A stretch of DNA of 64,000 bases from Candidatus Moranbacteria bacterium RIFCSPHIGHO2_01_FULL_55_24 (GCA_001786575.1 MFRW01000002.1:1717-65716), one strand, 5' to 3'; counted from the stretch's first letter, positions 2 through 3,683 are shown. Made by a program: numbers and translations. The notes: generated by a model not told the origin, from the letters alone.

Positions 2-136
2 TTCCCGATATGCCAATGCGGCCAGATACCGCAGGTGAAGATCATCACGAAGAAGCCGGTTCTCCCGAGCGAAGCTGAAACAAAGGAAAACCCACGCGCC
101 AGGAGCGCCAAGCTCCGTGTCGCGGAAAAGTGCTAG
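2..136 (+). CDS. rsmH: C-terminal fragment of 16S rRNA (cytosine1402-N4)-methyltransferase RsmH/MraW. The window begins inside the gene.
   Basis: Frame 2 translates to ...[28 protein letters not shown], which resembles the conserved RsmH C-terminus (NPRxRSAKLR). It sits immediately upstream of ftsL and ftsI, as in dcw clusters. Confidence 0.5.
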
Positions 137-175
137 AAAAGTTTCTTTCAGGATCAAAACAAAAATACAATTTAT

Positions 176-526
176 ATGAAGCGTCTCTCAAGACAATCTG
201 TTCCTGTGCGGCGCGCGCCCAAAAAAGAAGAGCGCGTGATGCTTTCGGGTTCCGTGCAGACGCTGTTTCTCCTGGTCTTGATGGCGCTTTTCATCTCTGG
301 CGGCCTCTATCTTTTCTCGGTCAACCGGAACGCTGTCCAGGGGTATCACCTGCGCAATCTGGAAAACGAAATCGATACGCTGAAGGAAGAGAATGCCGAG
401 CTGCGGATCGCGGAAGCCGATCTGCGTTCGCTCTATCGGATCGAAGCATCGCATGAGGAGCTCCAGATGGAAAAGACGGAATCGCTTAAATATCTCGAGA
501 AGCATGATTCAGTGGCGCTCCGCTAG
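176..526 (+). CDS. ftsL: Cell division protein FtsL-like (septum formation initiator)
   Basis: 116 aa with a basic N-terminus, a single TM helix (LFLLVLMALFISGGLYLF) and a coiled-coil/leucine-zipper-like C-terminus. It lies between rsmH and ftsI. An alternative start at 239 is possible. Confidence 0.55.
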   Translation: MKRLSRQSVPVRRAPKKEERVMLSGSVQTLFLLVLMALFISGGLYLFSVNRNAVQGYHLRNLENEIDTLKEENAELRIAEADLRSLYRIEASHEELQMEKTESLKYLEKHDSVALR

Positions 527-557
527 CGAGAGACAGTACCCGTAATCGAAGCTGCTT

Positions 558-2345
558 ATGCGAAAGTGCCGGAACGGCAAAGAAGCCGCAAACCTGAAAA
601 CCAAATCCGGAAAGAGAAGGGACGGACTGCCACGGGTGACTGTGCTCGGTCTCATCTTCTTCGTAGGAGGGACGCTTATCTTCATGCGTCTTTTTTTTCT
701 GCAGGTCGCATCGCATGACAAGTGGGTCGCGCTTGCCGAAGACCAGCACAATGCGTTCATGGAGCTTTCTGCCGAGCGCGGCGAAGTGTTCATGAAGGAC
801 AGTGACCATGAGTATCCGCTTGCGGTGAACCGGGAATACATGACGCTCTACGTCGTGCCGAAAGATACGGAGGAGAAAGATCGGACGGCTCTCGAGCTGG
901 CGCCGATCGTCGGCGTCGATCCCCAGATCATCCGCGAAAAACTCAATCGTCCTGACGATCCTTTCGAGATCATCAAGAAGCGGCTTTCGGAAGAAGAGGT
1001 AACGAAGATCAAGGCACTCAATCTGAAGGGCGTGAAGTTTCTGCCAGAAAAGTATCGCTACTATCCGGCAGGAGAGCTCGCTTCGCATGTGATCGGATTC
1101 GCTTCTCTCGGCGAGAACGGAGGTACCGGCGGCTATGGTCTCGAGGCATCGCAAGACAAGATCCTGCGGGGAGAGGCGGGGGAGCTCCGCCAGGAGCGCG
1201 ATGCGGCCGGCCGTTGGATCCCGCTTTCGGATCGGGATATCATCACCGCAAAGCATGGCGCCAATATCCATCTGACCCTCGATCGCGTGATCCAGTTCGA
1301 GACAGAGAAGATCATGCACAATGCAGTGGAGAAGTACGCAGCTGATCGGGCGAGCGCGATCGTGATGGACCCGAAAACCGGAAAGATCCTCGCGATGGCG
1401 TCCTCGCCGCAGTTCGATCCGAACAATTACAGCAAAGTCGAGGACTACTCCGTTTTCCTGAATCCGGTTTTGAGTCTCGCGTATGAGCCGGGATCGATCA
1501 TGAAGCCGATCACGATGGCGATCGGTCTGGAAGAGGGGAAAGTATCGCCCAATAGCGAGTACGTAGATACCGGCGTCGTGTCTATCTCCGGGTATAATAT
1601 CCACAATGCGGATGAGAAAGTCTATGGCAGGAGCACGATGACGAAAGTCCTTGATGAGTCGATAAATACCGGCGTCATCCATGTGGAGAAGCTCGTCGGG
1701 AACGCGACCTACCGCGACTACATGAAGCGTTTCGGGTTCGGCGAGAAGACAGGATTGGAATTGCCAGCCGAGCTTCCGGGAAACACGAAGAATCTCGACA
1801 AGACGCGCTCGGATATCCAATTCTATACCGCTTCCTTCGGGCAGGGTGTCACGACGACGCCGCTCCAGATGATTTCCGCCTATGCTGCCATGGCCAATGG
1901 CGGGTCTCTCATGCGGCCCCAGATCATCGAGCGTATCGAATATGCGGATGGCAAAGTGGAGGAGCGAAAGCCGGAGAAGATCCGACAGGTGCTTTCCGAA
2001 CAGACGAGCAAGGATATCGGGCAGATGCTCCGGAGTGTGGTCGTGAACGGGCACGGAAAGCGGGCTGATGTCCCGGGCTATCTCGTCGGCGGCAAGACCG
2101 GCACGGCGCAGGTGGCGAAAGGAAACGCGAAGGGTTATGAGGAGGGCATTTCGATCGGTTCGTTCGTCGGATATGCGCCTATCAATGACCCGCAATTCGT
2201 CGTCCTGGTGAAACTCGACAATCCGAAAAACGTGGAATGGGCGGAATCGAGCGCCGCGCCTGCTTTCGGTGAAATTATGCGTTTTCTTCTGGAATATGCG
2301 AAGATTAAGCCGACAGAAACTCAAGAAAAGGCAACAACGCCGTAA
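558..2345 (+). CDS. ftsI: Peptidoglycan D,D-transpeptidase FtsI / class B penicillin-binding protein
   Basis: 595 aa with an N-terminal TM anchor and a PBP dimerisation region. Transpeptidase motifs SIMK (SxxK), SGYN (SxN) and KTGTA (KTG) are present. Confidence 0.85.
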   Translation: MRKCRNGKEAANLKTKSGKRRDGLPRVTVLGLIFFVGGTLIFMRLFFLQVASHDKWVALAEDQHNAFMELSAERGEVFMKDSDHEYPLAVNREYMTLYVVPKDTEEKDRTALELAPIVGVDPQIIREKLNRPDDPFEIIKKRLSEEEVTKIKALNLKGVKFLPEKYRYYPAGELASHVIGFASLGENGGTGGYGLEASQDKILRGEAGELRQERDAAGRWIPLSDRDIITAKHGANIHLTLDRVIQFETEKIMHNAVEKYAADRASAIVMDPKTGKILAMASSPQFDPNNYSKVEDYSVFLNPVLSLAYEPGSIMKPITMAIGLEEGKVSPNSEYVDTGVVSISGYNIHNADEKVYGRSTMTKVLDESINTGVIHVEKLVGNATYRDYMKRFGFGEKTGLELPAELPGNTKNLDKTRSDIQFYTASFGQGVTTTPLQMISAYAAMANGGSLMRPQIIERIEYADGKVEERKPEKIRQVLSEQTSKDIGQMLRSVVVNGHGKRADVPGYLVGGKTGTAQVAKGNAKGYEEGISIGSFVGYAPINDPQFVVLVKLDNPKNVEWAESSAAPAFGEIMRFLLEYAKIKPTETQEKATTP

Positions 2346-2357
2346 AGACCCTCTTTT

Positions 2358-3683
2358 ATGCATTTTTCCAAACGCACTTTCCTCGAAGTCCTGCTCCGCC
2401 TGATGGCGCGTGCGGTGCTTGCGAAATATCATCCGATCATCGTCGGCGTCACGGGCTCTGTGGGCAAGAGCTCTGCCAAAGAGGCGATCGCGCTTGTTCT
2501 GGCTCATTCGTACCGCGTACGCAAAAGCGAAGGGAATTACAATAATGAGATCGGCATCCCGCTCACGATTCTCGGAGAGAAGAGCGGCGGCCGTTCGCTC
2601 ATCCGCTGGGCGCTCATCCTCTTCCGTTTTATCGGGACATTGGTCCTGCCGCGGCGCTACCCGGAAGTCCTGGTCCTCGAGATGGGCATCGACCATCCGG
2701 GAGATATGGATTACCTCCTTTCTTTCGTCCCGGTGAACATCGGGGTGGCCACGCATATATCGGGAAGCCACATGGCGTACTTCGGATCCATCGCGAATAT
2801 CGCGCGGGAGAAGGGCCGGCTGATCGCCAAGCTTCCCGAAGACGGGTTCGCGATCCTGAATGCCGATGACAAGCGCATCCTGAAGATGGCGGAGCGCACG
2901 CGCGCGAAAATCATCACGTACGGGTTCAGCGAGGGAGCGGATCTGCGAGCCGATAACCTTCTCTTTTACGGAGATGCGCGCCGCGCCGACGGATACAGCC
3001 TGAAACTGAACCATTCGGGGAAGACGATCCCGCTGCGTCTGCCTTCCATCATCGCGCGCCATCATATCCCGGCTGCACTGGCTGGCGCGGCAGTCGGCAT
3101 CGCGCTCAAGATGAATCTCGTCGAGATCGCTTCCGCGCTCGAGAACTTCGAACCGCTTCCGGGACGCCTCTCGCTCTTCCCGGGTCGGAACGACACGGTC
3201 CTGCTCGACGATACGTATAATGCTTCTCCGGCTTCGACGCGCGCCGCTCTCCAGGTACTCCAAGAGATGAGCGCCCCGCGCAAGCTGGCGGTGCTCGGCG
3301 ATATGCTTGAACTGGGGCCGGATTCCGATAACGAACATGCTGCTCTCGCTCCGGATATCATGCATGCCGGAGTACATATGCTCGTGCTTGTCGGGAAGCA
3401 TATGCGCGCTCTTCATGATGCGCTTCTCGAAGAAGGTTTCGCGAGGAAGCAGCTTCTGTGGCTCCCTGATCCGTATGCCGCGATAGAAGCGATGCAGCAG
3501 ATCATCCGGCCCGGCGATCTCATCCTCATCAAGGGATCCCAAGGCCTTCGCATGGAATTCATCGTGGAGCAGCTTCTCCGCGAGCCCGGCATAGCGCCGG
3601 AACGGCTCTGCCGCCAGTCCGCGGCCTGGAAGAACAAGCGCTTCGCGCCGCCGGAGGAGTGGACGGAGGAACTGAAGATCTAA
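2358..3683 (+). CDS. murF: Mur ligase family protein, MurF-like, lacking the usual N-terminal domain
   Basis: 441 aa. The P-loop GVTGSVGKSSAKE sits at residue ~30, whereas MurF normally has it near residue 110. Mur ligase middle and C-terminal domain features are present. The gene lies directly downstream of ftsI. Confidence 0.65.
   Translation: MHFSKRTFLEVLLRLMARAVLAKYHPIIVGVTGSVGKSSAKEAIALVLAHSYRVRKSEGNYNNEIGIPLTILGEKSGGRSLIRWALILFRFIGTLVLPRRYPEVLVLEMGIDHPGDMDYLLSFVPVNIGVATHISGSHMAYFGSIANIAREKGRLIAKLPEDGFAILNADDKRILKMAERTRAKIITYGFSEGADLRADNLLFYGDARRADGYSLKLNHSGKTIPLRLPSIIARHHIPAALAGAAVGIALKMNLVEIASALENFEPLPGRLSLFPGRNDTVLLDDTYNASPASTRAALQVLQEMSAPRKLAVLGDMLELGPDSDNEHAALAPDIMHAGVHMLVLVGKHMRALHDALLEEGFARKQLLWLPDPYAAIEAMQQIIRPGDLILIKGSQGLRMEFIVEQLLREPGIAPERLCRQSAAWKNKRFAPPEEWTEELKI

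Follow-up and report, generated by a model that had tools for sequence, protein, structure and literature searches.

The 64,000-nucleotide stretch of Candidatus Moranbacteria bacterium RIFCSPHIGHO2_01_FULL_55_24 analysed here (GCA_001786575.1, MFRW01000002.1:1717-65716; hereafter the window) opens with a block of genes for division and the cell wall (dcw), and this block raises the question whether a Mur ligase without its N-terminal domain can still be the MurF of its organism. The block studied covers the first ~4.2 kb and lies entirely on the + strand (Table 1). It contains, directly after ftsI, a ligase gene at 2358-3683 that a first-pass annotation, made from the sequence alone, had described as a possibly streamlined or repurposed lineage-specific enzyme. 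Our answer, to which we give a probability of roughly three in four, is that this gene encodes the MurF of this ultrasmall organism, i.e. the enzyme that adds D-Ala-D-Ala onto UDP-MurNAc-tripeptide (uridine diphosphate-N-acetylmuramoyl-tripeptide), and that its two-domain architecture is the rule across Patescibacteria, a group that goes by the name Candidate Phyla Radiation (CPR) as well.

The first step is to establish what is missing. The P-loop of the ligase, GVTGSVGKS, occupies residues 30-38. A phmmer search against the PDB aligns residues 27-72 to residues 101-146 of E. coli MurF (1GG4), and residues 103-409 to residues 153-448, which places the start of the ligase at the equivalent of E. 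coli MurF residue ~75-100. BLASTP matches residues 23-415 with residues 117-483 of a Chloroflexota MurF at 39% identity. The missing stretch is the whole of domain 1, about 75-115 residues, whose DSR...DGH motif is visible in the Chloroflexota sequences. Pfam detects only Mur_ligase_M (PF08245) and Mur_ligase_C (PF02875) in the ligase and no PF01225; as a positive control, PF01225 is found above threshold at residues 23-77 of two Chloroflexota MurF proteins (32-33 bits). A hidden Markov model (HMM) built from 17 Chloroflexota MurF N-domains matches every long MurF form described below as well as the MurE of locus L081, and it gives no match in any frame of the window, nor up to 10 kb from murF in the 61 Patescibacteria-type loci. 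The observation that the P-loop lies at about residue 30 and that domain 1 is absent is thus borne out by the 1GG4 alignment, by Pfam and by the N-domain HMM.

Neither an upstream start codon nor a frameshift can restore domain 1, because ftsI is complete, the spacer is only 12 nucleotides long and, going upstream in frame from the ATG, the ftsI stop is the first one met. In FtsI, PF03717 and PF00905 together extend over residues 71-574, the match to the transpeptidase profile reaches position 298 of 299, and the NCBIfam profiles SpoVD, PBP2 and FtsI are matched over their whole length. The two genes share one frame, with only the ftsI TAA and four codons between them, and the stop-to-stop segment in the murF frame begins at 2346. 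Inspection of the spacer and of the sequence upstream, which had been recommended as a check, reveals no in-frame N-domain extension and no frameshift in the 3' end of ftsI.

The second step concerns the identity of what is left. MurF orthology is shown by sequence, by predicted fold and by gene position. The ligase scores 287.6 bits against the NCBIfam MurF profile TIGR01143 (curated cutoff 288.6), as compared to 70.9-73.3 bits for murE, 63.9 for murD, 51.2 for murC and 62 bits or less for the cyanophycin synthetase model, so that the margin of MurF over every other Mur paralogue exceeds 200 bits. None of the MurT, FolC and CapB families appears among the 19 NCBIfam matches or among the Pfam matches at E <= 0.01. 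The profile alignments proposed earlier gave a divided outcome: the central domain (PF08245, 105.2 bits) and the C-terminal domain (PF02875) are present, while PF01225 and the CapB, FolC and MurT families are not. MurF chains come first in the phmmer search against the PDB (1GG4, 5.8e-42). The C-terminal domain carries the motifs G269-R270, DDTYNASP, GDMLELG, H327 and K392-G-S, the last four of which align to E. coli MurF, and 42 diverse homologues are invariant at G33, G36, K37, E108, D116, E151, N168 and D170 as well as at G269, R270, D284, Y287, H327 and K392. An AlphaFold2 (AF2) model built on the alignment of these 42 homologues is confident (predicted local distance difference test, pLDDT, 94.1; predicted template modelling score, pTM, 0.92). 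When it is compared with solved structures by Foldseek, the ten best matches are all MurF (template modelling score, TM, 0.49-0.75), with 4QF5, 4QDI, 1GG4, 3ZL8 and 4CVM at the top and TM 0.66-0.75 for the leading MurF structures, and the MurT-GatD structures are ranked 36 (TM 0.49) or lower.

The genomic setting is consistent with this assignment. The gene stands directly behind ftsI, the place of murF in most Chloroflexota loci sampled. In two related loci (L064 and L067) the short orthologue precedes mraY-ftsW-murG, which is the slot of murF. Genes for the lipid II flippase MurJ (13872-15527) and for MltG (19201-20214) lie in the window as well; together with the class B penicillin-binding protein they indicate that a lipid II pathway, which needs MurF, is present. 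Metabolic reconstructions report the peptidoglycan pathway in Patescibacteria bins, including Moranbacteria (PMC9530719).

The third step is to ask how far the short form extends. The 120 closest clusters at 90% identity all consist of proteins of 416-460 residues with the same two Pfam domains only. In the 150 best representatives of 50% clusters, which reach down to 35% identity, every alignment begins at about residue 1-15 of the representative and about residue 3-15 of the query. With each GTDB species represented by a single genome, a scan gave 80 loci, whose open reading frames (ORFs) were analysed. Some of the record titles ('uncultured Gammaproteobacteria' or 'Saccharibacteria' TPA bins) appear to be placeholders and were left aside in assigning taxonomy. 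The short form is found in 61 out of 61 Patescibacteria-type loci, with the P-loop about 28-45 residues from the start, and the long form, with 92-134 extra N-terminal residues, in 19 out of 19 loci from Chloroflexota and Aminicenantes. The short-form lineages include Moran-, Buchanan-, Falkow-, Nomura-, Yanofsky-, Yonath-, Kaiser-, Lipton-, Colwell-, Lloyd-, Peregrini- and Daviesbacteria as well as Paceibacterota. In all short-form loci save two, L046 and L065, a stop is met 1-57 codons before the profile start. There the frame is open for 87 and 60 codons upstream, respectively, and overlaps ftsI; counted from the first start codon, the ORFs are 428 and 449 residues long, and neither has a match to the N-domain HMM. 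The short MurF is therefore a trait of every Patescibacteria-type locus sampled and not a local peculiarity, and the suggestion of a lineage-specific Mur ligase holds in the sense of a MurF without domain 1 throughout the sampled Patescibacteria. In practical terms, the short and long forms are a clean molecular marker that divides Patescibacteria from Chloroflexota. A single ancestral loss of domain 1 is possible but not demonstrated by the sequence comparison: a neighbour-joining tree of the shared domains separates short from long forms, and this split was recovered in only 66 of 200 bootstrap replicates. The placement of Daviesbacteria is unstable, and an earlier neighbour-joining tree, based on a less filtered alignment, put them with the Chloroflexota.

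The ligase is of full length even without domain 1, from which the first-pass annotation had deduced that there must be insertions elsewhere. There are indeed two family-specific additions, an insertion and a C-terminal tail. The insertion (24-30 residues) sits between the NNxIGxP strand and the catalytic Glu, and appears as a clean 24-residue gap at residues 77-100 when compared with Chloroflexota MurF; the spacing from the P-loop to the catalytic Glu is 70 residues in short forms versus 45 in long forms. It contains a helix (residues 81-96, pLDDT 93-96) in which the family has hydrophobic residues at 12 out of 17 positions and a basic stripe along 83/86/90/93, and W84 and Y101-P102 are near-invariant in the insertion. 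The tail runs past the ends of both E. coli and Chloroflexota MurF, and after the KGS motif it comprises 33 residues in short forms versus 19 in long forms. It carries the motif L-x-R-Q-x3-W, in which 41 or 42 out of 42 sequences agree at each of L417, R419, Q420 and W424; in the more general form RQx(2-5)W the motif is present in 51 out of 63 short forms versus 1 out of 19 long forms. The MurF of Daviesbacteria lacks domain 1, the insertion and the RQxxxW tail, so neither of the two additions is obligatory. As concerns the N-terminus itself, the amphipathic helix at residues 5-24 of the model may be the counterpart of the linker helix between domains 1 and 2 of canonical MurF.

How could such an enzyme work? 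An ordinary MurF reaction on a reduced scaffold is most likely. The short MurF would still take UDP-MurNAc-tripeptide, and the central and C-terminal domains would hold the substrate via its diphosphate-MurNAc-peptide part. In the Parcubacteria-type lineages, helix 81-96 (with W84 and Y101-P102) and the L-x-R-Q-x3-W tail might cover the surface bared by the loss of the domain; alternatively, the helix and the tail might rebuild part of the nucleotide site.

Several points weigh against the assignment as the organism's MurF. The N-terminal domain is described as the part of Mur ligases that binds the UDP-MurNAc-peptide (PMC10214165; PMC11915815), and as reviews assign the binding to this domain, activity without it is not self-evident. 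The acceptor substrate is assumed from orthology. The TIGR01143 score is 1 bit under the curated cutoff, a shortfall that is expected given that the N-terminal positions of the profile are unmatched; it also accounts for the inconsistency of public annotations, which vary between 'hypothetical protein', 'Mur ligase family protein' and 'MurF'. Finally, the search for further Mur ligases covered the 64-kb window, so that a second, canonical MurF might conceivably lie elsewhere in the genome.

Of the competing explanations, the one that survives best is a repurposed ligase, which we nevertheless consider unlikely. Such an enzyme would add D-Ala-D-Ala or another dipeptide onto an acceptor without UDP, for instance a lipid-linked precursor (as is the case for the two-domain MurT) or a salvaged host muropeptide, and helix 81-96 would set the enzyme at the membrane. 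It is in favour of this explanation that the lost domain is the very part said to bind UDP-MurNAc (PMC10214165), that the remaining two-domain enzymes of the Mur family use non-UDP substrates, and that the insertion helix is unusually hydrophobic and has a basic stripe, like in-plane membrane anchors. MurT is also among the fold matches, though far below MurF. However, both sequence and fold are MurF-specific, the profile searches returned none of the MurT, CapB and FolC families, Pfam at E <= 0.01 reports no DUF1727, the C-terminal domain of MurT, and there is no gatD-like partner or other glutamine amidotransferase nearby, the neighbours of murF being ftsI and khpA. The murF slot before mraY is kept in L064 and L067, MraY needs UDP-MurNAc-pentapeptide, and no other candidate for MurF was seen. 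The helix, moreover, is no general requirement, as the Daviesbacteria protein has neither domain 1 nor the helix. Nothing in the data points to the different acceptor that the first-pass annotation had raised, given the margin of the MurF profile over its paralogues and the gene slot.

A bolder version of the same idea, quite unlikely in our opinion, is that the MurF of Patescibacteria, and with it the MurE of Microgenomates, dropped UDP recognition as free UDP-MurNAc-peptides ceased to be their substrates, and that the enzyme, kept at the membrane by the basic-striped helix 81-96, extends a lipid-linked or salvaged host-derived muropeptide. If this were true, the stem peptide would be completed on a carrier that differs from that of all studied bacteria.

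It is also conceivable, albeit very unlikely, that domain 1 is supplied in trans, either by a separate small protein encoded by a split gene or by a complex with MurE that keeps the UDP moiety held. The MurE of Parcubacteria (L087 and L088) retains domain 1, and from other bacteria both fusions of MurE with MurF and complexes of the two are known (PMC10214165). On the other hand, no ORF resembling a MurE or MurF N-domain is present in the window or within 10 kb of murF in the 61 loci, murE is not adjacent to murF in Parcubacteria, and in Daviesbacteria MurE cannot be the donor since it lacks domain 1 itself. The weakest explanation, an artefact in which a canonical murF lost its 5' part by frameshift, wrong start or pseudogenisation, has in its favour only the initial impression that a protein of normal length has its P-loop at residue 30, and it is already refuted by the conservation data, the same architecture recurring in 270 homologue clusters and 61 species-representative genomes. 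Besides, four independent assemblies of the same organism (L001-L004) have the identical gene structure, a full-length ftsI lies only 12 nucleotides away, no frame of the window has N-domain coding potential, and the AF2 model is compact and confident.

With the preferred reading of a two-domain MurF in hand, the reduced content of the block can be addressed. The gene order and coordinates are as first annotated, namely rsmH, ftsL, ftsI and the Mur ligase, followed by a gene for a KH-domain protein and rml genes. The description as a remnant with rsmH-ftsL-ftsI-murF only is correct in order and not in extent, as mraZ (PF02381) and a 323-residue Methyltransf_5 gene, which is the whole rsmH, sit immediately upstream of the window (seen in L001); the full block is mraZ-rsmH-ftsL-ftsI-murF. 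The succession of ftsI and a single Mur ligase is likewise real, and it is no peculiarity of Moranbacteria, since most of the Chloroflexota loci sampled have ftsI-murF without murE in between.

No second Mur-ligase gene was found in the window by phmmer or by hmmsearch on six-frame segments. Apart from L064 and L067, the short-form loci with enough upstream sequence have ftsI, and usually also mraZ, directly before murF, while L033, L035, L042, L052 and L056 have no ftsI immediately before it. Again apart from L064 and L067, no mraY, ftsW or murG lies within 10 kb downstream of murF in the short-form loci, and L025 is the only one of these with a further Mur ligase at up to 10 kb, namely a MurC ~9 kb upstream. 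In the Paceibacterota loci L087 and L088 a cmk-murE-murD-...-murC block is located 5-10 kb upstream of mraZ; its enzymes are of full length (MurE 505 bits over profile positions 2-469, MurD 317 bits, MurC 388 bits), and the MurF of the same loci is two-domain. In the Nomurabacteria locus L024, mraY-ftsW-murG is found 3.4 kb upstream of mraZ. Among the 120 closest Patescibacteria homologues of MurC nearly all contain PF01225, and two shorter entries do not. The block in the window is thus probably one fragment of a split cluster and not what remains after loss; the possibility, raised at first, that the other mur genes are dispersed holds in the related Parcubacteria (L087, L088, L024). One preprint refers to the dcw cluster of CPR as highly conserved (10.1101/2025.03.10.642329).

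The Daviesbacteria cluster is contiguous and almost canonical, mraZ-ftsL-ftsI-x-murE-murB-like-murF-mraY-ftsW-murG-ftsQ-ftsA-ftsZ. The MurB-like ORF between murE and murF (L086, 11217-11804) matches FAD_binding_4 only and has 195 residues, roughly two thirds of the length of a typical MurB, and is possibly a further truncated peptidoglycan enzyme of the CPR. A second class B penicillin-binding protein gene is located 4-6 kb upstream of mraZ in L025, L027, L028, L040, L048, L057, L070, L085, L087 and L088, and is followed by greA and aspS in L087 and L088. This arrangement is conserved in many Paceibacterota-type loci and absent from the Moranbacteria loci.

Table 1. Features of the dcw block and of its MurF, in window coordinates.
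Feature	Position	Strand	Basis or remark
rsmH (mraW), 3' end, 44 codons and stop	2-136	+	frame-2 translation
Probable ftsL, 116 residues	176-526	+	weak NCBIfam matches; slot between rsmH and ftsI
ftsI, class B penicillin-binding protein, 595 residues, full length	558-2345	+	Pfam, NCBIfam
ftsI-murF spacer, 12 nucleotides	2346-2357	+	direct sequence reading
Two-domain MurF orthologue, 441 residues	2358-3683	+	TIGR01143, Pfam, AF2 model, Foldseek
N-terminal amphipathic helix, residues 5-24	2370-2429	+	DSSP on the model; hydrophobic/basic periodicity conserved
P-loop GVTGSVGKS, residues 30-38	2445-2471	+	aligns to E. coli MurF P-loop
Insertion, residues 73-102 (24-30 residues)	2574-2663	+	gap versus E. 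coli and Chloroflexota MurF
Mur ligase C-terminal domain, residues 269-394	3162-3539	+	PF02875, 76.7 bits
C-terminal tail, residues 410-441 (~32 residues)	3585-3680	+	extends past E. coli and Chloroflexota MurF ends
khpA, KH-domain RNA-binding protein, 122 residues	3823-4191	+	PF13083 (KH_KhpA-B), 79.9 bits; first gene past the block

As to the other genes of the region, the ftsL-like ORF gives sub-threshold NCBIfam matches (FtsL_Actino 19.9 bits, ftsL_broad 17.9 bits), and an ftsL-like ORF fills the interval between rsmH and ftsI in all related loci. Read-through at 2343-2360 would yield an FtsI-MurF fusion; the shared frame is probably coincidental, and in many other loci ftsI and murF overlap or differ in frame. 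A stop-free antisense ORF of 1018 residues runs across ftsI and murF on the minus strand (486-3542), and most likely reflects how the sense genes are composed in codons, without being a gene. Promoter and terminator scans of positions 1-4400 returned counts at chance level and are uninformative on the end of the operon. The upstream ends of L001-L004 share a feature: all four assemblies break 240-690 bp before mraZ, which suggests a repeat or a strain-variable region.

The gene khpA adjoins murF only in the Moranbacteria loci, i.e. in the window and in L005, L006 and L007. KhpA is a regulator of cell elongation and division in Streptococcus. It is followed by rmlC, rmlB, rmlD, glyA, rmlA and galU, and this order, with glyA embedded in the rml cluster, is the same in both Moranbacteria genomes examined. 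MurJ and the lytic transglycosylase MltG/YceG are encoded 10-16 kb downstream of murF, after a GT4 glycosyltransferase and a 722-residue DUF4012 protein. The GT4-DUF4012 pair adjoins the dcw region in the Moranbacteria locus L005, and a GT4 gene with DUF4012 near it is also found in the Daviesbacteria locus L086. Further downstream, at ~32000-62000, the G+C content of the window falls from 0.53-0.60 to 0.40-0.52, which coincides with a large glycan-biosynthesis cluster: a GDP-mannose 4,6-dehydratase, a sugar C-methyltransferase, a B12/radical-SAM enzyme, a DegT aminotransferase, GT2 and GT4 glycosyltransferases, a PMT_2 protein and a 1164-residue GT2 protein. This region may be a surface-glycan island that was acquired horizontally or evolves fast.

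It is instructive to compare the short MurF with the systems that are already known. The best matches in both sequence and fold are the canonical MurF enzymes of E. coli (1GG4), A. baumannii (4QDI/4QF5), P. aeruginosa (4CVK/4CVM) and T. maritima (3ZL8). The short form shares with them the P-loop, E108, E151-K152, N168-x-D170, the G-R pair, DDxYNA, GDMxELG and KGS, as well as the gene slot after ftsI and before mraY. It differs from them in the absence of domain 1 and in the presence of a helix-containing insertion and a conserved C-terminal tail. The nearest relatives found outside Patescibacteria are the MurF proteins of Chloroflexota (Anaerolineae), with 35-39% identity over the two shared domains. 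Unlike the short form, they have domain 1, the P-loop is at 110-145, and there is neither the insertion nor the tail; their murF is followed by mraY-murD-ftsW-murG-murC, which is not the case in the window.

A parallel to the short MurF is the MurE of Daviesbacteria/Microgenomates. It too lacks domain 1, having 403 residues with TIGR01085 matched only from position 70 (L086, 10001-11212; L064, 8070-9293), and its 120 closest homologues are all of ~400 residues without PF01225. In this branch of Patescibacteria the preceding MurE step is thus two-domain as well; the accompanying short MurF reaches 305.9 bits with TIGR01143 and, unlike that of the window, has no insertion and no tail. Other enzymes, i.e. 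MurT, FolC/FPGS, CapB and the C-terminal half of cyanophycin synthetase, resemble the short MurF in as much as they consist of central and C-terminal domains without a Mur-type domain 1. None of these bears a specific sequence relationship to it, and MurT is a much weaker fold match.

According to the literature, three domains are confined to MurC-F and the pMur ligases (PMC11915815). The short MurF makes a large natural exception to this three-domain rule, extending across a whole bacterial radiation. A full-text literature search, which included few subscription journals, yielded no account of Patescibacteria whose MurF or MurE lacks domain 1, and this is weak evidence of novelty. Mur ligases are antibiotic targets, and inhibitor design makes use of the uridine/diphosphate pocket of domain 1. 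Three options follow: catalysis can do without domain 1, substrate recognition was rebuilt from new elements, or the acceptor differs. Set beside the known ligases, the short MurF is a new architecture of a known enzyme and not a new kind of system.

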